From: Spirochaetia bacterium
GTDB taxonomy: Bacteria; Spirochaetota; Spirochaetia; DAHUYW01
Length of the DNA: 64,000 bases
Direction: 5' to 3'
Assembly (NCBI GenBank): GCA_030041455.1
Contig: JASHNV010000146.1
Coordinates: forward strand, 10,174 to 74,173
The notes beneath the pieces are model-generated. The model was not told the origin of the DNA and ran no database searches. It saw only the letters and a list, made by a program, of their open reading frames with translations. Both the position numbers and the translations under genes were made by a program. Positions 1,332 through 12,876 of the stretch are shown here, one piece after another. Every line of letters begins with the position of its first letter. Position 1 is the first letter of the stretch.

Positions 1332-2144
1332 ATGAGACGCGCCGAGCGGAACGCGAGCTTCTCCCTGCGGTACGGCCCGTGGGCGGTCGTCCTCGGCGCG
1401 AGCGCCGGCCTCGGGGCGGCCTACGCGCGCGAGCTAGCCGCGAGAGGGCTCTCGATCGTCCTCGTCGCGCGCCGAGCCGAGCCGCTCTCGGCCCTCGCCG
1501 CCGAGATCCGCGCGAAGTTCGGCGTCGAGACGCGCGCGGTCGCGCTCGATCTCGGAAGCCCGGAGGTTCTCGCCGCGCTCGAGCGCGAGACGCGGAATCT
1601 CGACGTGGGGCTTGCCGTCTACAACGCGGCGAGTGTGGACATCGGGCCCTTTCTCGACGGTAGCCTTTCCGACCACCTCCGGGCGATCGACGTCAATTGT
1701 CGGGGACCGGTCGCCGTCGCCCATCACTTCGGCGGGAGGATGCGCGAGCGCGGCAGGGGAGGGATCGTGCTCATGTCCTCGCTCACGGCGTTCGGCGGAT
1801 CGCCCTACCTTGCGACCTACGGCGCCTCCAAGGCCTTCAATCTGATCTTCGCCGAGGGGATCGGCTACGAGCTCAGGAGGCTCGGAATCGACGTCACCGT
1901 CTGTTGCGCCGGGGCGACGCGGACTCCCGGCTACGAGGCTTCGGCGCCGCCGAAGGGCGCCTTCCCTCCGGTGATGGAGCCCGAGGCCGTCGTCCGCTCA
2001 GTGCTCCGCGCGCTCGGGCGGAGGACGGTCCTCGTCCCCGGCGGGGTGAACCGCGCGCTCAGCGCGCTCATGCGGCGGCTCCTACCGCGAGCCGCTGCGG
2101 TCGAGATCATGGGCGGAGCGGTGAGGGGCCTCGAAGGCACGTGA
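1332..2144 (+). CDS. Short-chain dehydrogenase/reductase (SDR)
   Basis: Gly-rich cofactor motif VVLGASAGLGAAYA near the N-terminus and a catalytic YGASKAF (YxxxK). ATG 1332 preferred; TTG 1296 is an alternative. The stop overlaps the next gene's start (GTGA). Confidence 0.7.
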   Translation: MRRAERNASFSLRYGPWAVVLGASAGLGAAYARELAARGLSIVLVARRAEPLSALAAEIRAKFGVETRAVALDLGSPEVLAALERETRNLDVGLAVYNAASVDIGPFLDGSLSDHLRAIDVNCRGPVAVAHHFGGRMRERGRGGIVLMSSLTAFGGSPYLATYGASKAFNLIFAEGIGYELRRLGIDVTVCCAGATRTPGYEASAPPKGAFPPVMEPEAVVRSVLRALGRRTVLVPGGVNRALSALMRRLLPRAAAVEIMGGAVRGLEGT

Positions 2145-4171
2145 GCGGCGCCGAAGAGGATCCTAGGCGCGGGCGGGCGGCCGCGCCCGATCGGAGGCTC
2201 CGCCTCGTGCGCGCGATCCTGTGGGACGAGCTCGAGCTTCGGCCGACGATCCAGATCAAGCTCGGGACCCGCCGCCGCCTCGATCCGCTCCGGCCGGTCG
2301 AGGGCTCGCGGCCCGGCAGGCCGCGCTACCGCGGCCAAGAGGTGGAGCTTGAGGGCCGATGGGAGGAGCTCGACGGGGGCGGGAGCCTCCTTCGGCTGCG
2401 GCTCGTAAACCGCGCGTCCGAGTCGATCCGCGTCACCCGGCTCACCTTCCCCACCGAGAACGGCTTGGCCGCCTTCATCGGAGATTTCCGTCCCGAGAAG
2501 ATCTCCTTCATGCGAAACGGCTACCAATCGTGGTCGACCGCGCGGAGCTATCGCCTTCGCGAGAAGCCGCTGAGACCCTGGCTGCTTCTCGTCTCGAGCG
2601 CTTCGAGCAACCTCGCGAACCTTCCCTCCAACCATCCCGGGATCCTCTCCTCGGAGATGTACTCGGTCATCACCGACGCCGAGCGCGGACAGTCGTTTCT
2701 CGTGGGCCAGGGCGCCCCGTTCAACCAGTTCCTCTACATCAAGCTGAACCTGTACCGCGGGCGGAAGAGAACGTCGCACTTCGAGCTGCAGTACGATTTC
2801 GGGCGCAGGATGATCGAGCCCGGCGAGCGGATCGAGCTCGACCGGATCGTCATGATGAAGGGCGAGACTCACGCCCTCATGGCGCGGTACTTCGCGCTCG
2901 TGAAAAGCGAGATGCGCCTCCGCCGTCCCGGGAAGAACGTCCGCGGATGGTGCACCTGGTACTCCTACCACAATCGGATCACGCCGGAGGCGATTCTCCG
3001 GAACGTCGAGATCATCGCGAGCCGGAAGCTCGACATCGACGTCATCCAAATCGACGACGGCTACCAGCGTCACGTCGGAGACTGGCTCGACCCCGCAGAC
3101 CCCTTCAAGGGGCGCATGCGCGAGCTCGCCGACCGCATCCGGGAGGCGGGCTACCGCCCCGGGATCTGGATCGCGCCCTTCGCCGCGAGCCTGACCTCCG
3201 ACCTCCTCCGGCACCATCCGGATTACGTGTCGCGAACCGAGCGGGGTAAGCCGATCGTCTGCGGCTACGCGCCTTTCTGGCGAGGACGACTCTACTACGG
3301 GCTGGACATCACCAACCCCCGCTTCGCCGAGTACATCCGGCGCGTGATCCGGACCATCGTGCGCGAGTGGGGCTTCACCTACCTGAAATGCGACTTTCTC
3401 TTCACCGGGGCGCTCCGCGAGTCCGACCCGCGGGACATCGGCCGCTCCCGGGCGGAGATCCTGCGGGAGGGGATGCGAATGATCCGCGAGGAGGCGGGAG
3501 CCGGCGTCACGATCGTCGGCTGCGGGATGCCGCTCTCGACGGGAATCGGCGCCGTCGACGCGATGCGGATCGGGCCCGACACCGGGCCCTTCTGGATCAA
3601 GCGCGTGGGCAGGCTCCTTCGCACCGGCGCGATGGTCGGCGTCCGCAACTCGATGCGAAACGTCATGGTGCGGAGCGCGATGAACAAGAACCTCTGGCTG
3701 AACGACCCCGACTGCCTCATGGTGAGGAAGGCGCGGACCTCCCTGAGCCCGGAGGAGCGGATGAGCCAAATCAACGCCATCATCCTCTCGGGAGGGGCGC
3801 TCGTCTTCAGCGACGATTTCTCAAGCTTGTCGGCCGACGCGATGGAAGAGGCCGCGAAGATCGGCAGGCTGAGCAACGCCTGCTTTCGAGGCACGGCGGT
3901 CGCGGTCGACCTCATGGAGCGCGAGATCCCCCAGATCTTCTACAACACGGCGGGCTTCCTCGGGCTCTTCAATCCCACCGAGCGCCGTCAGACGATCGAG
4001 GTACGGCTCGAGACGCTCCCCTGGGCGAAGGGGCGCTACGCGCACATCGTGCCGTACGACGTCTGGTCGGGCCGGCCCTATCCTCTCCGGGACGGCTCCA
4101 CCCTCGTCGCCCACCGCATGCCCCGGCACTCCTCGATCCTCCTCACGCTCCGCGGGATGCCCTTTCCCTGA
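2141..4171 (+). CDS. Alpha-galactosidase-like glycoside hydrolase (GH36/melibiase family)
   Basis: Motifs GWCTWYSYHNRI, IDVIQIDDGYQ, IWIAPF and YLKCDF(LF) typical of GH36/GH27 alpha-galactosidases. The track ORF from 1697 overlaps the SDR gene. GTG at 2141 overlaps the SDR stop (GTGA); GTG 2207 is an alternative start. Confidence 0.6.
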   Translation: MSGAEEDPRRGRAAAPDRRLRLVRAILWDELELRPTIQIKLGTRRRLDPLRPVEGSRPGRPRYRGQEVELEGRWEELDGGGSLLRLRLVNRASESIRVTRLTFPTENGLAAFIGDFRPEKISFMRNGYQSWSTARSYRLREKPLRPWLLLVSSASSNLANLPSNHPGILSSEMYSVITDAERGQSFLVGQGAPFNQFLYIKLNLYRGRKRTSHFELQYDFGRRMIEPGERIELDRIVMMKGETHALMARYFALVKSEMRLRRPGKNVRGWCTWYSYHNRITPEAILRNVEIIASRKLDIDVIQIDDGYQRHVGDWLDPADPFKGRMRELADRIREAGYRPGIWIAPFAASLTSDLLRHHPDYVSRTERGKPIVCGYAPFWRGRLYYGLDITNPRFAEYIRRVIRTIVREWGFTYLKCDFLFTGALRESDPRDIGRSRAEILREGMRMIREEAGAGVTIVGCGMPLSTGIGAVDAMRIGPDTGPFWIKRVGRLLRTGAMVGVRNSMRNVMVRSAMNKNLWLNDPDCLMVRKARTSLSPEERMSQINAIILSGGALVFSDDFSSLSADAMEEAAKIGRLSNACFRGTAVAVDLMEREIPQIFYNTAGFLGLFNPTERRQTIEVRLETLPWAKGRYAHIVPYDVWSGRPYPLRDGSTLVAHRMPRHSSILLTLRGMPFP

Positions 4172-4485
4172 CTGACGAGGCGAAGGTCGCAGGAAGGGAG
4201 CCCGGCTCTTCGTGGCCGGCGCTCCCCGGGTGCCCGGCCGGGCACGGAACGCCCTCGTGAGCCGGGCCGACGCGGTCGCCTGCGCCCGAGCTCCGCGACG
4301 CGCAATTCCTTCGAGGCGGACTCAGGCGATCCGGCGCGGGGACCGTCCTGTCGCCGCGCTCCGTCTCTTGTCGCCTTCGACCTCTCGCCCGCGCGGAGCC
4401 TCGGACGTCCGGTGCCGTCGTCAGGAACGGCGACTCGCGTCGCCCGATCGGCTTTTCCGTCGCGGTCTCGCCCAAGGACTCCGGC

Positions 4486-5883
4486 TCATACGGCCACGTA
4501 CTCGATCCCGAGCTGCCTGCACAGGAGCTTCCAGCGCCGGGTCTGGTCGCCGAGGTTCATGACCTGGTGATGGGTGCCGCCGTTCGCGAGCCATCCGTCC
4601 AGGCAGGCGCGCACGCCGGTCTCGGGACGGAAGTGGAAATAGGGCATCTCGACGTGGACGAGCTCGGGGGTGTCGAGAACCTCGCCGCGCGCGACGACCG
4701 CGCGGTACTTTCCGCCGTCGAGGGAGACGAGGGAGACGAGGGTCGCCGGACCCGGCTGCGCCATGAACAGGACCGTCGGCGGGTTGTCGAGCTTGCCGAT
4801 CCCGAGGGGGCGGTCGATGAGGCGAACCGGCCGGTCCTTGCGGGCGACCTTCCAGTTGCCCTCCCCCATGTGGCTCTGGAGCGACGAATTGAGGGTGAAG
4901 TCCATCGCGTACATCTCGGTGAAGTGGGCGTCGCCCGCGAGGACCTGGCCCGCGGTCACGGCGACGGCCGAGCACGTGTCGCCCTCGGCCGAGTAGCCGT
5001 AGCCCTCGGCCATCAGGTTGGAAGCGGCCATCATGTGAATCTGCTTGAAGCGTCCGTCGTCGCCCGGCGAGTTGAAGTAGATGGAGAAGCCGTCGAAATC
5101 GCCCTCTTCGAGCATGCGCTTGATCGCGACCTGGAAGCGCGCGGCGTACCGGTGGTTGGAGTCCTGAAGCTTCGGATCGATCTGAAAGTTCTTCCGGTTC
5201 TCCGCGACGACCTTGTCGACGTCGGCGTCGCTCACCTTCTCGAAGAGCTTGTGGATCGCGCCCATCGCCACCTGGTCGACCTGGGGGCCGAGGCGCTTCA
5301 TCAAGGCGGCGTGGTCGGTCAGGATGTCGCCCATGCCGGGCATCTGGCCGACCGCCGCGATGCGCATCGTCTGCATCGCGCGCGCAGTCTGCGCCGCGCG
5401 GCCCCAGTCGCCGACGAACGCGCGGAAGGCATCCGACCTCCAGTCGTCGGAGATCACCGGACAGGGAATCCCCCAGCGGAGGATCGCGTTCGCGGTGTCC
5501 TGCGCCCCGTGGATGCCCTGGTTGTAGGTGAGATCGTCCATGTTCCAGTTCGCGCCGACCGACGGCTCGGGCTGAATGTTGGCGAGCATGATCGGGAGGC
5601 GGTTCGCCCTCAGCGCGTTGTACAGCCGCAGCCCCGGACTGTAGGTGAGCATGAAGATCATGATCCCGTCGTAATCGCCGCGGTTGAACTCCTCGACGTA
5701 GCGCTCGATGTCGGCTCGATTGCGCGCGGCGCCGGGGAAGTGGGGATCGACCACGCTCTTGAGCTCCGCGGCGACCGAGCGCGCGTAGCTCTCCTGGTGC
5801 TTCGTAATCCCAGGTATCATCTCGTCGTAGAGCTCCTGCATGATGCCGAGGAGCGCAATCTTCGGTTTTCTGTTCGCTTTCAT
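4486..5883 (-). CDS. araA: L-arabinose isomerase
   Basis: From MKANRKPKIALLGIMQELYDE... with GGAGG 7 nt upstream of ATG 5883 (the track ORF begins further upstream at 6018). Motifs MAEGYGYSAEGD and C-terminal GGTHHQVMNLGD...LGIEYV align with AraA. About 465 aa. Last gene of the ara operon. Confidence 0.8.
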   Translation of the reverse strand: MKANRKPKIALLGIMQELYDEMIPGITKHQESYARSVAAELKSVVDPHFPGAARNRADIERYVEEFNRGDYDGIMIFMLTYSPGLRLYNALRANRLPIMLANIQPEPSVGANWNMDDLTYNQGIHGAQDTANAILRWGIPCPVISDDWRSDAFRAFVGDWGRAAQTARAMQTMRIAAVGQMPGMGDILTDHAALMKRLGPQVDQVAMGAIHKLFEKVSDADVDKVVAENRKNFQIDPKLQDSNHRYAARFQVAIKRMLEEGDFDGFSIYFNSPGDDGRFKQIHMMAASNLMAEGYGYSAEGDTCSAVAVTAGQVLAGDAHFTEMYAMDFTLNSSLQSHMGEGNWKVARKDRPVRLIDRPLGIGKLDNPPTVLFMAQPGPATLVSLVSLDGGKYRAVVARGEVLDTPELVHVEMPYFHFRPETGVRACLDGWLANGGTHHQVMNLGDQTRRWKLLCRQLGIEYVAV

Positions 5884-5965
5884 CCTGACCTCCGAAAACA
5901 AGGTACCTATTCTATCGCGAAAACGCCCGCTCGGCGCAGACAACGCAGGCCGTGCCGGGACGCGC

Positions 5966-6808
5966 TTAACTCTTGACGGCTCCCGAGGTGAGCCCCTCGA
6001 CGAGCCGCGTCTGGACAAACGAGAAGAGGAGAATCGTCGGAACGATCGTGAGGACGGTCGCGGCGGCGACCTGCCCCCAGCGGAGAATGAGCGCGCTTCC
6101 GAGGCGCTGGAGCGCGAGGGTAAGCGTCGAGGTTCGCTGGCTCTGGGAGATGACCGAGACCACGAGATAGTCGCCCCAGGACACGACGAACGCGTAGAAG
6201 GCCGCCACCATGATCCCCGGCGCCGAGATCGGAAGGACGATGCGGGAAAGCGTCTGGAACAGGTTGCAGCCGTCGATCCGGGCGGAATCTTCGATGTCCT
6301 TCGGCAGGTTGTCGAAGTATCCCTTGAGCATCCACACGGCGAAGGGCAGCACGAGCATGAGCTGGCCGAGGGCGACGCCGACGATCGTGTTGAACAGCCC
6401 GATGGCGAAGATGACCGTGTAGATCGGAATGAGGAGCAGCACCACCGGAAACATCTGCATCGAGAAGACGCCCATGATGTAGGCGTTCTTGCCCCTCAGG
6501 GGGTAGCGGCTGAGCCCGTAGGCGCCGGGGATCGAGAGGAGCATCGACGCGGCGGTCACGACGAGGCCGAGGCGCAGCGAGTTCCAGAAGTAGACCGGAA
6601 AGTCGGTGACCGAGAGGACCGTCTTGTAGTTGTCGACCGTGAAGTCCTTCGCCGCGGTGTAGATCTTCGCGCTGAAGATCGCTTCGGGGGTGCGGAACGA
6701 GCTGTAGGCGATCCACAGCATGGGCGTGATGAAGAACAGGAACGCGACGACGCAGACGAGGTAGGTGAGCACGTAGCGGAAGGTTCTTCGCTGTCGCTTC
6801 GTCAACAT
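5966..6808 (-). CDS. ABC sugar transporter permease (AraQ/MalG-like)
   Basis: Six TM segments with the EAA-type loop ...IEDSARIDGCNLFQTLSRIVLPISAPG... ATG at 6808. The stop of the upstream permease is 4 nt away. Confidence 0.8.
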   Translation of the reverse strand: MLTKRQRRTFRYVLTYLVCVVAFLFFITPMLWIAYSSFRTPEAIFSAKIYTAAKDFTVDNYKTVLSVTDFPVYFWNSLRLGLVVTAASMLLSIPGAYGLSRYPLRGKNAYIMGVFSMQMFPVVLLLIPIYTVIFAIGLFNTIVGVALGQLMLVLPFAVWMLKGYFDNLPKDIEDSARIDGCNLFQTLSRIVLPISAPGIMVAAFYAFVVSWGDYLVVSVISQSQRTSTLTLALQRLGSALILRWGQVAAATVLTIVPTILLFSFVQTRLVEGLTSGAVKS

Positions 6809-6811
6809 GGT

Positions 6812-7687
6812 TCAGGTCTCCCGCCGCTCGTAGATGCGGATGTAAACGACGAAATAGATCATGAGGACGACGAACATGACGACGCCGATGCTCGAGGCGT
6901 ATCCCACGCTGTAGCTCTGCCAGGCCTGGAGGTACAGGTAGACCGGCAGCACCTCGGTGGCGTAGACGGGGCCGCCCCCCGTCGAGAGGTAGACCATGTC
7001 GAAATTGTTGAAGGTCCACAGAACGTGAATGGTCACCATCACGATCATCATGTTGCGCACCCCCGGCACCGTGACGTGAACAAAGCTCCGCCAGGGGCCG
7101 GCGCCGTCGATCTCCGCCGCCTCGTAGGTCGTGTGGGGGATCGCCTGAATCGCGGCGAGGAAGGCGATCCCGTAGAACGGCACGTTTCGCCAGAGGTGAA
7201 GGAGGATGATCACGGGGAAGGCGAGCTGGAGGTCGCCGAACCAGAAGTTGTTCGCCTTGATGCCGAGCGCGTGGAGGACGATGTTGTAGAAGCCGTATCC
7301 CGGCTCCACCATGAACTGGAAGATGATCGCGGTCGCGGCGACCGGGATCACCCAGCTTGCCATGATGATGCTGCGAACGAAGCGGATGCCGGGCACCTCC
7401 TGCTTCAGGGCGAGCGCCAGGATCAACCCGAGCACGAGCTGCAGCACGACGACCGACGCGGTGAGGACGAGCGAGTGGAGGAAGGCGCCCCAAAAGATCG
7501 GGTCGTGCGCGAGCTTGACGTAGCTCTGGAGCCCGATCCAGTGCTCGCCCTTGTTGAGGAGATTCGAGTCGGTGAAGGAGAGCCTGAAACCCTCGATGAG
7601 CGGCAGCACCGAGAAGAGCGCCATGACGACGAGGGTCGGCATGATGAGAGGCAGGCCGCTGTTCTCCTTGATGAATCGCGCCTTCAC
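6812..7687 (-). CDS. ABC sugar transporter permease (AraP/MalF-like)
   Basis: Hydrophobic permease with EAAEIDGAGPWRSFVHVTVP. GTG at 7687 (VKARFIKE...) has a GGAGGGGG SD 8 nt upstream. The track's TTG 7711 has no SD. Confidence 0.75.
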   Translation of the reverse strand: MKARFIKENSGLPLIMPTLVVMALFSVLPLIEGFRLSFTDSNLLNKGEHWIGLQSYVKLAHDPIFWGAFLHSLVLTASVVVLQLVLGLILALALKQEVPGIRFVRSIIMASWVIPVAATAIIFQFMVEPGYGFYNIVLHALGIKANNFWFGDLQLAFPVIILLHLWRNVPFYGIAFLAAIQAIPHTTYEAAEIDGAGPWRSFVHVTVPGVRNMMIVMVTIHVLWTFNNFDMVYLSTGGGPVYATEVLPVYLYLQAWQSYSVGYASSIGVVMFVVLMIYFVVYIRIYERRET

Positions 7688-7773
7688 GTTGGAACCCCCT
7701 CCGGGCGACAAAGAGACGGGCGGCGGCGGCCGGAAAAGGCGGCCGCCGCGCGCCCGATGGGATCGTCGAATTG

Positions 7774-9114
7774 CTAGATCGTGCCCGCCGTGATGAGACC
7801 GGTCACCGTGTCATGCAGCCACTGCGCCGCGTCCTGCGGACTCTTCTGGCCGTAGATCACGTAGTTGATCGCGTGCATCTCCGCGTCGGAGACCGGGCCC
7901 CAGTTGATGGGCTCCTGGGCGTGCGCCTGCGGGAGGAGCGCCGCGAACATCTTCAGCCAGTTCCCCAAGGGTCCCTGGAAGACCGGGAGGTCGAGGGAGT
8001 CCGTGCGGGCGGGGATGCCGCCGCTTGAGGCCATCCAGTTGCCCATGTTGTCCTTCGAGGTGATGAACTGAATGAGCTTCCAGGCTCCCGCCTTGTCCTT
8101 GGAGTAGTGGTTCATCATGATGGGCTTCACCTCAAGGTAGGTGCCGGCGGTTCCTCCGGGCGGGATGGGCAGCGCGGTGACGACCGAGTTGTCGAGGATC
8201 GTCGCGGCGGCGGGGTCGCCGTTTCGCCGTCCCCAGAGCCACGGACCTTCCGGAGCCATCGCCCACTTGCCGGACGTGTAGCCGGGATCCTCGCTCGGCC
8301 AGCCGTTTCCGCGCTCGGCCGGGTCGATCGCGGGGGTATCGCCCGCGAAGGCCTGCTGATAGAGGGTGAGGATCTCGGTCAGCTGCGCGATCGTCGGGTT
8401 GTAGGTCTTGGTGCCGCCTGAGATGGTGAACATCGGCTGGCCGCCGCCCACCTGGAACCACCACGAGATGACCTCCTGGGGCGCGCGGGGATCGCCGACC
8501 TTGGTGCACAGGAACAGGCCGTACATCTGCGCGTTCGTCGCCTTCGTGATCGCCTGGCCCTCGCTGATGAGGTCGTTCCACGTCTGCGGCACCGGCAGGT
8601 TGTACTGGGCGAGCACGTCCTTGCGATAGATGAGGCCGCGCGCGTTCGTGTTGTAGGGGATGCCGTAGAGCTTGCCGTCGATCGTGAGGGGCGCGAGCGT
8701 CGCCTGCACGAACTGGTCCTTGTCCGCCCACGCGTTGAAGTAGGAATCGAGCGGCTCGATCAGCCCCTTTTGGACGTAGACGGCCGTGTCTTCAAGGAGT
8801 CCCTCGATCACGTCGGGCGTCCCGCTTGAAGCCTGGATCAGGAACTTGGCGCGCAGAGGGTCGTAGTCGCCGGGTCCGAAGAAGTCGCTCACCGTGTAGC
8901 CGGGAAGCGCGGTCTTCACGTTCGCGAGCCACGTCTTCACGTAGTCGGGCGAGACCTCCTGCGTCACGAACGGCATGTTCCAAAAGGAAAGCGTCCCTCC
9001 GCTCGTGCCGGACGACGAGGCGCTCTCGCTTGTGCCCGTCGCGAACAGCGCGGGCGACGCGATGAACAGCGCCGCGCCGAAACACAGTCCTCCGAAAATC
9101 AGTTTCCTTTTCAT
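7774..9114 (-). CDS. ABC transporter sugar-binding protein, family 1 (AraN-like)
   Basis: ATG 9114 (MKRKLIFGGLCFGAALFIASPALFATG... signal peptide) with AAGGAG upstream. About 446 aa, solute-binding fold. Sits between araD and the permeases. Confidence 0.8.
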   Translation of the reverse strand: MKRKLIFGGLCFGAALFIASPALFATGTSESASSSGTSGGTLSFWNMPFVTQEVSPDYVKTWLANVKTALPGYTVSDFFGPGDYDPLRAKFLIQASSGTPDVIEGLLEDTAVYVQKGLIEPLDSYFNAWADKDQFVQATLAPLTIDGKLYGIPYNTNARGLIYRKDVLAQYNLPVPQTWNDLISEGQAITKATNAQMYGLFLCTKVGDPRAPQEVISWWFQVGGGQPMFTISGGTKTYNPTIAQLTEILTLYQQAFAGDTPAIDPAERGNGWPSEDPGYTSGKWAMAPEGPWLWGRRNGDPAAATILDNSVVTALPIPPGGTAGTYLEVKPIMMNHYSKDKAGAWKLIQFITSKDNMGNWMASSGGIPARTDSLDLPVFQGPLGNWLKMFAALLPQAHAQEPINWGPVSDAEMHAINYVIYGQKSPQDAAQWLHDTVTGLITAGTI

Positions 9115-9220
9115 AATCTTGGTCACACTCCTTGCTTTCGAGATTTCTTCGCACAATGAGACGAGCATCTTCCTTTCCCTTCCCTATCACCTCCCTCCTT
9201 CGCAGCCGGCGGCCGGGCTG

Positions 9221-9931
9221 CTAGTGCCCGGCCGCCGGCTGGCCGTAATACGCCCCCGCGCCGTGCTTGCGCTTGAAGTGCTTGTCGAGCAGATTCCGCG
9301 GGATCGCCTCAGGCTCCGGGTTGATGGCGTACGTCAAGGCCGCCATCTTCGCGATCTGCTCGAGGGCGATCGCGTTCGCGAGCGCCCCCGCGGCGCTCGG
9401 GCCCCACGCGAACGGCCCGTGATGCGGGAGCAGGATCCCGGGGACGTCGAGCGGATCGAGCCCGAGGCTCCGGAACGTCTCGACGATCACGCGCCCGGTT
9501 TCCCGCTCGTAGAACCGAAGCTCCTCGTCCGAGAGCCTCCGCGCGCAGGGAACCGGCCCGTAGAAATGGTCGGCGTGCGTCGTGCCGAGGCACGGGATTT
9601 CGCGGCCGCTCTGCGCCCAGCTCGTCGCGTAGGTCGAGTGGGTGTGCACGATGCCGCCGACCCCGCCGAAGGCGCGGTAGATCTCCGCGTGGGTCGGCGT
9701 GTCCGAGGAAGGGCTGAGCTCGCCGTCCGAGACCGTTCCGGTCGCGAGGGACACGATGACGATGTCGCGCGCGCGGAGCTTGTCGTAGGCGACTCCGCTC
9801 GGCTTGATCGCGAGGACCCCGGCCGCCCGGTCGAGGCCGCTCGCGTTGCCCCACGTGAGCACGACGAGGCCCGCCTCGACGATCTCCATGTTGACGCGGT
9901 AGACCTCCTCGCGCAGCCGAGCGAAGCTCAT
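9221..9931 (-). CDS. araD: L-ribulose-5-phosphate 4-epimerase
   Basis: 236 aa from MSFARLREEVYRVNMEIVEAGLVVLTWGNASGLDR...; class II aldolase/epimerase fold with HTHS motif (GGIVHTHSTYATSWAQ). The ATG at 9931 overlaps the araB TGA (ATGA). Confidence 0.85.
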   Translation of the reverse strand: MSFARLREEVYRVNMEIVEAGLVVLTWGNASGLDRAAGVLAIKPSGVAYDKLRARDIVIVSLATGTVSDGELSPSSDTPTHAEIYRAFGGVGGIVHTHSTYATSWAQSGREIPCLGTTHADHFYGPVPCARRLSDEELRFYERETGRVIVETFRSLGLDPLDVPGILLPHHGPFAWGPSAAGALANAIALEQIAKMAALTYAINPEPEAIPRNLLDKHFKRKHGAGAYYGQPAAGH

Positions 9932-11616
9932 AGTCCGCGCGCCTCGTCGCGAATGCGAAGAAGCTCCTTCATGACGTCGAAGAGGTTGTCGCGATACTCC
10001 CGCGTGCCGAAGATATCGTGGAGCTTCCGGTAGAGCCGGTAGATCCGATCGTAGACCCGGGCGCTCTCGCGCTCGGGCGTGTAGCGCCTCGGGAGCACGC
10101 CGGTCATCCTCGCCGCCGCGGCCTCGAAGGTGTCGTGGCCCCCCGCGCGCGCTCCGGCGACGACCGCGCCCGCCATCGCGGAGCCGAGCGCCGGGGTCTC
10201 CGTGCTCCGCGAGATTTCGATCGGGCGGCCCATGACGTCGGCGCAAATCTGCATGAAAAGGGGATTCTTCTGGGGGATCCCGCCGCAGGCGACGATCCGC
10301 TCGACCGAGACTCCGTACTCCTCGAATCGCTCGGCGATGATCCGGGAGCCGAAGGCGGTGGCCTCGATGAGGGCGCGATAGATCTCGGCGGCCGTCGAAT
10401 GGAGCGAGAGCCCGAGGATCAGACCGGTGAGCCGTTGGTCGACGAGGACCGTTCGGTTGCCGTTCTCCCAATCGAGGGCGAGGAGGCCGCTCTCGCCCGC
10501 CTTGAGCTTCGCCGCCTGCTCGCTCAAGCTCGCGTGGCTACCCCGCTCCTTGCCGCCGGGCTGGATGAAGCTTACGTACCAGTTGAAAATGTCTCCCACC
10601 GCGGACTGACCGGCCTCCAGGCCGAAGTTCCCCGGCAGGATCGACTCCGGAACGATCCCGCAGAGGCCGGGGATGTCCCTCATTCCCTTCGCGAGGGGCG
10701 ACACGAGGAGGTCGCAGGAGGAGGTGCCGATGTTCTTCACGAGCGTCCCCGGCTCGATCCCCGAGCCCACGCCGCCGACGTGGGCGTCGAAGGCGCCGAC
10801 CGCGACCGGAAGCCCCCGCGGGAGACCGAGCTTCTCCGCCCACTCGCCGCTCAGGAAGCCCGCCGCCTCCCGGATCGTGTGGACCTCGGCGGGGAGGCTC
10901 TCGCGGACGCGGGCGAGCTCCGGATCGAGCCGCGCGAGGAACTCAGCCTCGGGGTAGCCGCCCCAGTCCCGGTGGTACATCGCCTTGTGCCCGGCCGCGC
11001 AGATCCCCCGCTTCACCTGGTCCGGACGCGTCGTGCCGGTGAGCACCGCGGGAATCCAATCGGTGAGCTCGATCCAGGTGAAGGCCGCCGCGAAGACCTC
11101 GGGGGCGGTCCGCTTGCAGTGCAGGAGCTTCGCCCAATACCACTCGGAGGAATACACGCCGCCGCATTTCGCGAGGTACTGGGGTCGAATTTTCGCGGCG
11201 AGCTCGGTGATCTCCGCCGCCTCGGCGAACGCCGTATGATCCTTCCAGAGCCAGGCGAGCGCGGCCGGGTGGCTCCCGCGCTCAGGCGAGAAGGCGAGAG
11301 GCGTGCCGGCGCGATCGACCGGGATCGGCGTGCTTCCCGTCGTGTCGACGCCGATCCCGATCACCTGCTCGGCGGCGAAGCCCTTTCGGTCCCGCGCCTT
11401 TCGGAGGGCGTCGGTGATCGTCGCGACGAATCCGTCGACGTAGTCTTGGGGATGCTGGCGCGCGAAGTTCGGATCGCGCTCGTCGACGACCACGCCGTTT
11501 TCCCCGTGCGCGTAGCCCCAGACGCTCGAGGCGATCTCTTCGCCGGTCTGCGAATCCACGATGAGGGAGCGCACCGAATTCGTGCCGTAATCGAGCCCGA
11601 TCGCGAAGTTGCCCAC
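9928..11616 (-). CDS. araB: Ribulokinase (FGGY family)
   Basis: 562 aa, N-terminal FAIGLDYGTNSVRSLIVD and FGGY signatures (GTSSCDL..., ACGGIPQKNPLFMQICADVMGRPIE). GTG start 11616 with GAGGAG 8 nt upstream. Confidence 0.85.
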   Translation of the reverse strand: MGNFAIGLDYGTNSVRSLIVDSQTGEEIASSVWGYAHGENGVVVDERDPNFARQHPQDYVDGFVATITDALRKARDRKGFAAEQVIGIGVDTTGSTPIPVDRAGTPLAFSPERGSHPAALAWLWKDHTAFAEAAEITELAAKIRPQYLAKCGGVYSSEWYWAKLLHCKRTAPEVFAAAFTWIELTDWIPAVLTGTTRPDQVKRGICAAGHKAMYHRDWGGYPEAEFLARLDPELARVRESLPAEVHTIREAAGFLSGEWAEKLGLPRGLPVAVGAFDAHVGGVGSGIEPGTLVKNIGTSSCDLLVSPLAKGMRDIPGLCGIVPESILPGNFGLEAGQSAVGDIFNWYVSFIQPGGKERGSHASLSEQAAKLKAGESGLLALDWENGNRTVLVDQRLTGLILGLSLHSTAAEIYRALIEATAFGSRIIAERFEEYGVSVERIVACGGIPQKNPLFMQICADVMGRPIEISRSTETPALGSAMAGAVVAGARAGGHDTFEAAAARMTGVLPRRYTPERESARVYDRIYRLYRKLHDIFGTREYRDNLFDVMKELLRIRDEARGL

Positions 11617-11640
11617 CTGATGTCTCCTCGCCGGATATTA

Positions 11641-11653
11641 GTACAGCCTGTAC
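11641..11653. promoter_or_regulatory. Candidate AraR operator 1: palindrome GTACAG-C-CTGTAC
   Basis: Perfect 6+1+6 inverted repeat seen directly, about 25-38 bp upstream of the araB start, with the GTAC core shared with Bacillus AraR boxes. Followed immediately by a 10-nt repeat CTATCGTATC. Confidence 0.4.
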
Positions 11654-11668
11654 CTATCGTATCCGGAC

Positions 11669-11697
11669 ATCATAGCACGGTTACGATTGCGGCGCAA
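11669..11697 (-). promoter_or_regulatory. Putative araB operon promoter (minus strand: TTGCGC-17-TATGAT)
   Basis: On the minus strand, -35 TTGCGC (plus 11692-11697) and -10 TATGAT (plus 11669-11674) with a 17-nt spacer. Operator 1 lies just downstream of the predicted start site. Confidence 0.25.
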
Positions 11698-11713
11698 GGG
11701 AGAATCGGCATCG

Positions 11714-11742
11714 TTGACAGCCGCCCAAGGAGCGGCTATCGT
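11714..11742 (+). promoter_or_regulatory. Putative araR promoter (TTGACA-17-TATCGT)
   Basis: Consensus -35 TTGACA at 11714-11719, 17-nt spacer, -10-like TATCGT at 11737-11742 (part of the second CTATCGTATC repeat). Operator 2 begins about 9 nt downstream, consistent with autoregulation. Confidence 0.35.
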
Positions 11743-11750
11743 ATCAGTCG

Positions 11751-11764
11751 ATACAGCTTGTACT
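11751..11764. promoter_or_regulatory. Candidate AraR operator 2: imperfect palindrome ATACAG-C-TTGTAC
   Basis: Near-repeat of operator 1 (TACAGC[CT]TGTAC), 15 bp upstream of the araR start and preceded by the CTATCGTATC repeat. Together with operator 1 it gives a mirror-symmetric layout around position about 11700. Confidence 0.35.
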
Positions 11765-11778
11765 AACAGGACGCTGGG

Positions 11779-12876
11779 GTGAGAAAATACGAGCTAGTCG
11801 AGGATTGGGTTCGTACGAGCATCCGCGACAACCGCATCGCGCCGGGCGACAAGCTGCCGTCGGAGAGCCAGCTCTGCGCGCAGTTCGGAGTCTCGCGCAA
11901 CGCCGTCCGCCAGGCAATCCGAAATCTCGCCCACGAGGGATCGGTCGAGAGCGTCAAAGGGGTGGGGACCTTCTGCCGGAAGCGGCTCGCCAACTCGATG
12001 CTCTCCACGAACATCGGCTTCGTCTGCTTCTTCTCGGGCTCCTACATCTTCCCCGAGATCATCCGCGGCTGCGATCACGTCCTCTACCAGCGCGGCTTTC
12101 ACCTGCTGCTCAACCAGTCGGAGTACGATCTCGAGAAGGAGCGCGCCATTCTCGTCAATCTCAAGAAAAAGGGAGTCGACGGGATCATCATCGAGCCGGT
12201 CTTCGACGGTCACGGCCGATCAAACGCCGATCTCCTCGGCGAGCTTTCCGACCAGGGAACGCCGGTGGTGCTCATCGACAATTATTTCGCTTCCCCCGAG
12301 TTCAGCGTCGTTTCGCTCGACGACCGCCTCGGCGGTGCGGAGGCCGCCTCGTTCGTGTGGAACAAGGGCCACCGGCGCATCGGCGTGTTCTACCAGGCCG
12401 ACTACCAGGTGAAAATACTCAGGAAAGAGGGCGCCCTCGAGCGTCTCGCGCGGCTCGGCGCCGCCGTCCCGGACGCGTGGATCGTCGGCTTCAACGGCCA
12501 GGGGCCCGCAAGCGAGGCGCCGAGAGCGGCCGAGCGTTTCTTCGGCGCCTCGGTCGAGCTTCCCTCCGCGATGATCTGCAGCAACGACGAAGAGGCCCTT
12601 CACCTCATGCAGGCCGCGGAGCGCCACGGGATTCGCGTTCCCGACGATCTGTCGGTGGTCGGCTTCGACAACTCGAGCATCGCGCAGATCGGGCAGGTCT
12701 CCCTCACCTCGGTCCACCATCCGAGCTTCGCGATGGGGGAGACGGCGACCACGATCCTGCTCGAGAAGATCTTTCACCCGGAGCTCCGGTTCGTCACGCG
12801 GACCATCATTACCCCGACGCTCGTCGAGCGCTCCTCCGTCCGAACGATCGAGACCGAGGAGGTGGGCGTGCGATGA
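11779..12876 (+). CDS. araR: AraR-type repressor (N-terminal GntR HTH + C-terminal PBP1/LacI-type sugar-binding domain)
   Basis: N-terminal ...LPSESQLCAQFGVSRNAVRQAIRNLAHEG (GntR HTH). The rest (IGFVCFFSGSYIF...VDGIIIEPV...VVLIDNY...MICSNDEEALHLM...VVGFDNS) is a periplasmic-binding-protein type 1 effector domain. Divergent from araB. Confidence 0.8.
   Translation: MRKYELVEDWVRTSIRDNRIAPGDKLPSESQLCAQFGVSRNAVRQAIRNLAHEGSVESVKGVGTFCRKRLANSMLSTNIGFVCFFSGSYIFPEIIRGCDHVLYQRGFHLLLNQSEYDLEKERAILVNLKKKGVDGIIIEPVFDGHGRSNADLLGELSDQGTPVVLIDNYFASPEFSVVSLDDRLGGAEAASFVWNKGHRRIGVFYQADYQVKILRKEGALERLARLGAAVPDAWIVGFNGQGPASEAPRAAERFFGASVELPSAMICSNDEEALHLMQAAERHGIRVPDDLSVVGFDNSSIAQIGQVSLTSVHHPSFAMGETATTILLEKIFHPELRFVTRTIITPTLVERSSVRTIETEEVGVR

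Follow-up and report, generated by a model that had tools for sequence, protein, structure and literature searches.

The subject of this work is the arabinose control region in a 64,000-nucleotide stretch of contig JASHNV010000146.1 from a Spirochaetia bacterium (the window; G+C content 66.6%). Open reading frames (ORFs), family matches and the sequence itself place the region at 11617-11778, a 162-bp gap, correctly delimited in the first-pass annotation of this DNA, between araB on the minus strand and araR on the plus strand. The regulator gene araR (11779-12876, plus strand, GTG start at 11779) encodes a 365-amino-acid protein that joins a GntR to a LacI/GalR-type part (PF00392, PF13377, PF13407 and PF00532). 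The operon transcribed in the opposite direction, entirely on the minus strand, opens with the ribulokinase gene araB (9928-11616, GTG start at 11616; NF003154, 657 bits against a cut-off of 428), continues with the L-ribulose-5-phosphate 4-epimerase gene araD (9221-9925, start approximate; NF006047, 316 bits against a cut-off of 257) and a CUT1-type sugar ATP-binding cassette (ABC) transporter (5966-9168; binding protein 7774-9168, permeases 6812-7711 and 5966-6808), and ends with araA, a divergent L-arabinose isomerase gene whose maximal ORF spans 4486-6018 with the true start probably near 5840-5960. The araA product matches all three Pfam AraA domains (N-terminal, central and C-terminal) and scores 176 bits against the NCBIfam equivalog, below its cut-off of 622.

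Two short palindromes within the control region are predicted to be operators. Box 1, assigned to the araB promoter, is the perfect 13-bp palindrome GTACAGCCTGTAC (GTACAG-C-CTGTAC) at 11641-11653, exactly as described in the first-pass annotation, and extends to about 11639-11655 with its conserved flanks. Box 2, assigned to the araR promoter, is ATACAGCTTGTAC (ATACAG-C-TTGTAC) at 11751-11763; it too had been recognized earlier, with an end coordinate of 11764 that is one position too long. The box centres, at 11647 and 11757, are 110 bp apart. With a 15-column scoring matrix built from sites of related loci only, the window being excluded, box 2 scored 22.1 bits and box 1 scored 20.6 bits, and the runner-up in the 64 kb scored 9.0 bits. 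This third match, GTACAAGCCGTAC at 949-961, is located in uvrB-like coding sequence (UVR motif) and can probably be put down to chance. A matrix scan of 11560-11830 returned nothing above 3 bits besides the two boxes, leaving the araB promoter with a single site. When the palindrome pattern was searched with up to two mismatches, six occurrences were found in the 64 kb against 0.37 expected, a number that none of 100 shuffles reached. The operators of GntR-family regulators share a palindromic signature, (N)x-GT-N(0-15)-AC-(N)x (PMC1950556), to which the first GT and last AC of both boxes conform. Each gene carries a ribosome-binding site (RBS) 7 nt ahead of its GTG: GAGGAG for araB (11624-11629, minus strand), which is aligned in the subclade alignment A2, and AGGA for araR (11768-11771, plus strand), where the CAGG that follows the box is kept in relatives.

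The regulator itself resembles AraR of Bacillus subtilis in both of its domains. Its N-terminal GntR winged helix (PF00392, 71.6 bits, residues 4-65) aligns to the B. subtilis AraR structure 4EGY with E = 2.6e-11, and its C-terminal domain has the LacI/GalR-type fold (PF13377, PF13407 and PF00532) and is not a FadR, HutC, MocR or YtrA domain; among solved structures this part matches B. subtilis AraR 3TB6 best (E = 3.5e-36), with PurR behind it. The two proteins are nonetheless distant in sequence, with bit scores of 128 for the C-terminal and 46 for the N-terminal domain. Among the residues that contact DNA in B. subtilis AraR (PMC1950556, PMC3592433), K4, Y5, E30, R41, R45 and G62 are kept in the window protein as K3, Y4, E29, R40, R44 and G61, and two, H42 and Q61, are replaced. 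The gene stands divergent from araB-araD-ABC-araA, and its relatives stand beside araBD, araA-araD or sugar ABC transporters, which links the regulator gene to genes of L-arabinose catabolism.

Evidence that the boxes are operators of this regulator comes from related loci. Our comparison set comprised 29 loci from GTDB species representatives and six further contigs, with flanks of about 4 kb; all regulator homologues belong to Spirochaetota, mostly to metagenome-assembled genomes. In about 30 of these Spirochaetota loci, R-GTACARCYTGTAC-Y is found again ahead of the orthologous regulator, a GntR/LacI chimera. One box lies about 30 nt ahead of the araR start codon in 26 loci, with the consensus ataaG-GTACAACTTGTAC-Catcagg, while a second adjoins the RBS of the divergent operon, either as GTACAGCTTGTACC or in a fixed degenerate form, GTACAACTTATGCC; the divergent-promoter orthologue of box 1 is conserved in 23 further loci, giving 24 sites with the window. 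Each of positions 1-13 is worth 1.0-2.0 bits, and conservation extends on both sides to R at 0 and Y at 14 and to W at -1 and 15, so that the sites form a conserved odd palindrome of 15-17 bp with the clade consensus W-R-GTACA-R-C-Y-TGTAC-Y-W. The proposal that the two palindromes serve the adjacent AraR-type regulator is thus well supported as a prediction, given that about 30 orthologous loci have them in the same positions. Chance or a non-functional origin, for instance as mobile-element remnants, deserves almost no credence: one in 20 mononucleotide shuffles of the window did yield a single 21-bit site, but here two sites stand within 162 bp beside the cognate gene and hold fixed positions across loci that are 54-74% identical in regulator protein, in which the intergenic DNA between the conserved blocks is itself unconserved.

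The motif also keeps its place when the neighbouring genes change. The divergent operon is araB-araD-CUT1 ABC in the window and in L001, L002 and L030, begins with a CUT1 binding protein in L012, encodes a CUT2 ATPase-permease-binding-protein transporter in most loci, and is araA-araD in Spirochaeta isovalerica (L152, GCA_014207565.1), whose regulator is 54% identical to that of the window. The two-box pattern is found in this cultured species, as GTACAACTTGTTC and GAACAAGTTGTAC at 2862-2874 and about 2975-2990, and in a Salinispira-like contig. Since the motif is present whatever the divergent operon encodes, it follows the regulator and not any one target, which is the signature of a regulator's own operator. 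Sites with at most one mismatch are almost absent outside the araR intergenic regions of the related loci, and neither the flanks of the related loci nor the DNA ahead of the CUT1 transporter operon of L009, L015 and L026 yielded further operators. We also weighed whether another factor encoded elsewhere, such as a global carbon regulator, binds the boxes in place of the adjacent AraR-like protein. The sequence covered amounts to 64 kb of this genome and flanks of about 4 kb in the relatives, and a wider regulon may exist. This explanation nevertheless appears quite improbable, because the motif stays with the regulator gene through all the operon arrangements, shares its half-site with the one defined experimentally for AraR (PMC1950556), conforms to the GntR signature GT-N-AC and has no further copies in the 64 kb.

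Several observations on these loci stand apart from the question of which protein binds. In more than 10 main-clade loci (among L003-L029; for example L004, 3592-3604) the right half of the box by the CUT2 operon is degenerate in an identical way (GTACAACTTATGCC), and this shared form suggests that selection may favour a weaker or asymmetric site there. In L030, the closest relative found (regulator 74% identical), the araB orthologue at 3714-5401 is divided into two ORFs, FGGY_N and FGGY_C, owing to a frameshift (pseudogene) or to a mistake in the assembly. Within the window, a Melibiase-family (alpha-galactosidase-like) gene at 1697-4171 on the plus strand converges on araA and has no AraR box ahead of it. 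A metagenome-wide scan for GGTACAACTTGTACC was uninformative about the regulon: among the at least 80 loci listed there was no AraR homologue and there were no ara genes, the matches listed being mostly chance matches and an unrelated GC-rich palindrome. Several GC-rich metagenome contigs share a longer palindrome around this 15-mer, (TGCCAACnGG)GG-GGTACAACTTGTACC-CC, again with no AraR or ara genes nearby (L033 at 2068, L051 at 3621, L054 at 10785, L060 at 1582, L065 at 370, L066 at 3817 and L079 at 817), which suggests an unrelated repeated element or a site used by some other factor.

The boxes take up characteristic positions relative to the predicted promoters. On the plus strand, a consensus promoter scan identified a -35 TTGACA at 11714-11719 and, after a 17-nt spacer, a -10 TATCGT at 11737-11742, with a predicted araR start at about 11749-11751. 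This promoter matches the consensus at 10 of 12 positions and is the sole sigma-70-like match of the scan in the region. Most relatives keep the -35 TTGACA, and some have variants of the TTGACT or TTGCAT type. In the majority of loci 16 nt separate TTGACA from the box, which thus overlaps the -10, whereas the gap is 31-33 nt in the window and in L030, L001, L031, L002, L012 and L153. The window subclade, L002, L012 and L153 have a separate -10 (TATCGT, TATGGT, TACAGT or TACTGT; TAYNGT) at the 17-nt spacing, and the box begins 8-10 nt after it; in the window, box 2 begins 8 nt after TATCGT and would span about +1 to +13 of the araR transcript. The first-pass annotation had already placed operator 2 at the start site of a TTGACA/TATCGT promoter, and this arrangement is conserved in the six loci just named.

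The minus-strand promoter had been placed less accurately. That operator 1 lies downstream of the araB start site is predicted here too, but the -10 previously located inside the first of two repeat copies was rejected in favour of a conserved extended -10, TGcTATGAT (11669-11677, minus strand; hexamer TATGAT at 11674..11669), from which transcription is predicted to start at about 11661-11663. The block ATCATAGCATGG, which supports this extended -10, is among the few conserved stretches of alignment A2. In the relatives, the divergent promoter consists of an A-tract, possibly an UP element, ahead of a -35 TTGCAA, a 17-nt spacer, TGnTATCAT (or TATGAT), a constant gap of about 15 nt and the box. 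The minus strand of the window is laid out in the same way, with a weak -35 TTGCGC (11697..11692) that aligns with TTGCAA in relatives and falls below the threshold of the consensus scan, 17 nt to TGcTATGAT, and 15 nt to box 1. This fixed 15-nt gap would place box 1 at about +9 to +21 of the araB transcript.

If these predicted start sites are right, both boxes fall within transcribed 5' untranslated regions (UTRs), and the palindromes might instead act there as RNA hairpins affecting stability, translation or attenuation. We regard this as highly improbable, as a single central base is too short a loop for the 6-bp stem, which would be reduced to 4 bp at best, a search of the control region against Rfam matched no RNA family, the araR box of most relatives extends over the -10, with only part of it transcribed, and the boxes are conserved base by base without compensatory change. 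Their positions, at a fixed 15 nt after one -10 and overlapping the other -10 or its start site, are as would be expected of a repressor. Looping between the boxes by helical phasing was considered and rejected: the box-to-box spacing is 110 bp in the window and 119-296 bp in relatives with no common helical phase, and together with the single araB box these unphased distances do not indicate cooperative looping.

The control region had also been described as two-fold symmetric about position 11700, with each palindrome flanked by the same 10-nt repeat, CTATCGTATC. Two exact copies are indeed present on the plus strand, the first at 11654-11663, between the araB -10 and box 1, and the second at 11736-11745, one position to the right of the earlier coordinates (11735-11744). 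The copies are direct and not inverted, copy 1 abutting box 1 (0 nt) and copy 2 lying 5 nt from box 2. Since they are direct and unequally offset, the supposed mirror symmetry is one of positions only, and the DNA has no dyad at 11700. An exact 10-nt direct repeat arises in only 0.8% of mononucleotide shuffles of the 162-bp region, copy 2 includes the araR -10 TATCGT, and the reverse complement of copy 1 includes TACGAT, which is the -10 in L005 and L014; CTATCGTATC could on these grounds be a functional part of a symmetric module, either as the site of a second regulator or as the paired -10s of back-to-back promoters. We consider this unlikely. As a conserved element CTATCGTATC was rejected, for it is absent in L030, L001 and L031 in the subclade alignment, L030 having CTACTGCGAC and CTATCGTTAG at the two positions, and constraint is seen only in the CTA that flanks box 1 and in C-TATCG at the araR -10. 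Copy 1 as a whole is thus not conserved, and of copy 2 the CTATCG part alone is. The direct orientation and the offsets of 0 and 5 nt likewise argue against a symmetric module, there is no -35 at the right distance from the TACGAT of copy 1, and the conserved TGcTATGAT lies 13 nt further upstream.

Taken together, these results make it likely, as a computational prediction, that the locus encodes an arabinose-responsive AraR repressor that regulates itself and araBD-ABC-araA through odd-palindrome operators. In the proposed mechanism, an AraR dimer, with its GntR DNA-binding domain and its LacI-type sugar-binding and dimerization domain, would bind one odd palindrome per promoter. Because box 2 covers the predicted araR start site, its occupancy would limit the repressor's own synthesis. 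Occupancy of box 1 would block either initiation or promoter escape for araB-araD-ABC transporter-araA. Binding of L-arabinose to the C-terminal domain would then release the DNA, by analogy with B. subtilis AraR and with the effector suggested by gene context. Repression as opposed to activation, the start sites, the effector and the placement of the monomers are all inferred.

How the dimer sits on an odd palindrome is best considered against the operators of B. subtilis AraR, which are 16-bp even palindromes with the consensus ATTTGTACGTACAAAT, composed of the half-site hexamer TTGTAC/GTACAA (PMC1950556). No Bacillus-type box (TTGTACGTACAA, up to two mismatches) was found in the window or in the main-clade araR-upstream regions, in agreement with the earlier remark that the operator format differs from that of Bacillus. 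The further suggestion of a divergent AraR specificity was overstated, since the half-site hexamer is the same as in Bacillus and it is the arrangement and spacing that differ (PMC1950556). Crystal structures show the N-terminal domain of each monomer reading T/A-N-G, with R41 contacting the G and the wing residue Q61 contacting the T/A, and the two monomers make no mutual contact and accommodate 6- and 8-base spacings of the core motifs (PMC3592433); by our count, the contacted G residues are then 7 and 9 bp apart.

Operators of Bacillus type do occur among spirochaetes. In a second clade, whose regulators are 51-53% identical to the window protein, Bacillus-type boxes lie at the 5' end of the regulator gene, most clearly in L020 (ACTTGTACGTACAAGT). 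Here the half-sites form arrays of three: GATCAA-C-TTGTAC-GTACAA in L020, GTACAA-C-CTGTAC-TTACAG in L154 and GGACAA-C-ATGTAC-TAACAA in L155; L022 has the array TTGTAA-GTACAA-G-TTGTAC-GTAtat. In a midpoint-rooted neighbour-joining tree, the loci with odd palindromes only (the window, all main-clade loci and S. isovalerica) form a group separate from those with H2-H3 or three-half-site formats, which is consistent with a single change of operator format. The three-half-site arrays link the Bacillus-type and odd-palindrome formats.

In the sister and outer clades the array lies inside the first 10 or so codons of the regulator gene (L020, 3974-4010; L023 and L019, about 3974-4010; L154, 3001-3035; L155, 418-455) and falls in an N-terminal extension, M-x-x-Q-x-V-x-T-x-K-[H/Y]-Q. 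The Val of this extension is always encoded by GTA and the Thr always by ACA, which argues that the constraint acts on the DNA. In L020 and L155, the two whose promoters were read, the -10 ends about 5-7 nt ahead of the ATG, suggesting that these regulator transcripts are near-leaderless. The regulator of L155 is followed by a fucose-isomerase-like gene, an aldolase gene and an FGGY kinase gene, and in L154 an IS21-type transposase pair (rve and IstB, 66-2347) lies directly upstream of the araR homologue.

Two geometries can be envisaged for the odd palindrome. In geometry A, the monomers would read YTGTAC as they do in Bacillus, with the half-sites swapped tail-to-tail (GTACAR-n-YTGTAC). In geometry B, they would read the outer W-R-GTAC in the Bacillus orientation across a spacer 5 bp longer, with the contacted G residues 12 bp apart. 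The identity of the hexamer and the existence of three-half-site intermediates appear to favour geometry A. We tentatively propose, as one possible history, that the AraR dimer was re-registered in one Spirochaetota lineage, so that TTGTAC half-sites came to be read tail-to-tail, by a switch that passed through H1-n-H2-H3 arrays and was permitted by flexible tethering of the DNA-binding domains. Two points weigh against our interpretation. Geometry A may be sterically difficult, as the two wings would, in our judgement, converge on one central minor groove, and geometry B is sterically simpler. In addition, the base contacts differ from those of B. subtilis, H42 being replaced by N41 and Q61 by K60. 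These replacements are also found in the sister clade with the Bacillus-type box, however, and so do not explain the change of format; N41 or K/R60 was accordingly rejected as the specificity-determining residue, K/R60 being common to the clade with Bacillus-type boxes and position 41 being variable there, so that no residue covaried cleanly with operator format.

The subject is a routine sugar regulon, known here by computation. The boxes are almost certainly the repressor's sites. Their half-site, TTGTAC, is that of Bacillus AraR and is arranged differently here, which amounts to a modest variation on a familiar switch. R-GTACARCYTGTAC-Y provides a usable operator model for annotating arabinose regulons in Spirochaetota, and S. 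isovalerica, as a cultured spirochaete, is convenient for an experimental test of the prediction. Should the re-registration proposal be true, it would offer a traceable natural example of an operator re-registered by one half-site; if the protein binds in the ordinary orientation and only the spacer is longer, the motif would be a routine lineage-specific variant. The even palindrome, the three-half-site arrays and the odd palindrome form a natural series within one orthologous repressor family for which DNA complexes have already been solved, making testable the question of how operator architecture and dimer geometry co-evolve under flexibly tethered DNA-binding domains.

Our literature searches found no spirochaete AraR regulon or motif, and searches for the motif strings returned only unrelated primer sequences. 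The AraR proteins of Thermotoga, Caldicellulosiruptor and Clostridium are GntR-family orthologues whose regulons were described by comparative genomics; repression of araBDA, arabinoside ABC transporters and arabinofuranosidases was predicted or shown by expression, the sites lie within 5' UTRs or over promoter elements, and one regulon includes a non-canonical arabinose isomerase (PMC3750489, PMC8579813). These studies concern orthologues of the Firmicute regulator and not a spirochaete AraR. The motifs in these genera are reportedly Bacillus-like even palindromes. In divergons controlled by GntR regulators, one central site is usually shared by both operons (PMC4494728), whereas the two promoters described here have a site apiece, 110 bp apart. 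The contact between the recognition-helix Arg and a G is the conserved base contact of the GntR family, to which the window regulator belongs. FadR-type operators are 17-bp odd palindromes, and the outer GGTAC...GTACC arms of the 17-bp palindrome described here resemble them; FadR, however, is a rigid dimer with an all-helical effector domain, unlike AraR with its LacI-type domain.

The closest parallel remains AraR of B. subtilis (boxes ORA1/2, ORE1/2, ORX1/2, ORR3 and ORB1; structures 4EGY, 4EGZ, 4H0E and 3TB6). The spirochaete regulator has the same chimeric architecture and, as predicted here, would likewise repress genes of arabinose catabolism and transport and regulate itself through a single box at the araR promoter, the last point being indicated by position only (box 2, and the araR box in 26 loci). 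The half-site hexamer, (Y)TGTAC or GTACA(R), is also that of B. subtilis AraR. The arrangement differs, in that the B. subtilis half-sites abut head-to-head in an even 16-bp TTGTAC·GTACAA palindrome, whereas those described here form an odd palindrome of 13-17 bp, GTACAR-n-YTGTAC, with the GTAC cores 9 bp apart centre to centre as compared with 4 bp in B. subtilis. The metabolic promoters of B. subtilis use a cooperative in-phase pair of operators about 42 bp apart (PMC3592433), in contrast to the one operator at the araB promoter here. By architecture, gene context and half-site, the window regulator is thus a predicted member of the AraR subfamily, one that departs from its Bacillus relative in operator format and in having no paired operators.

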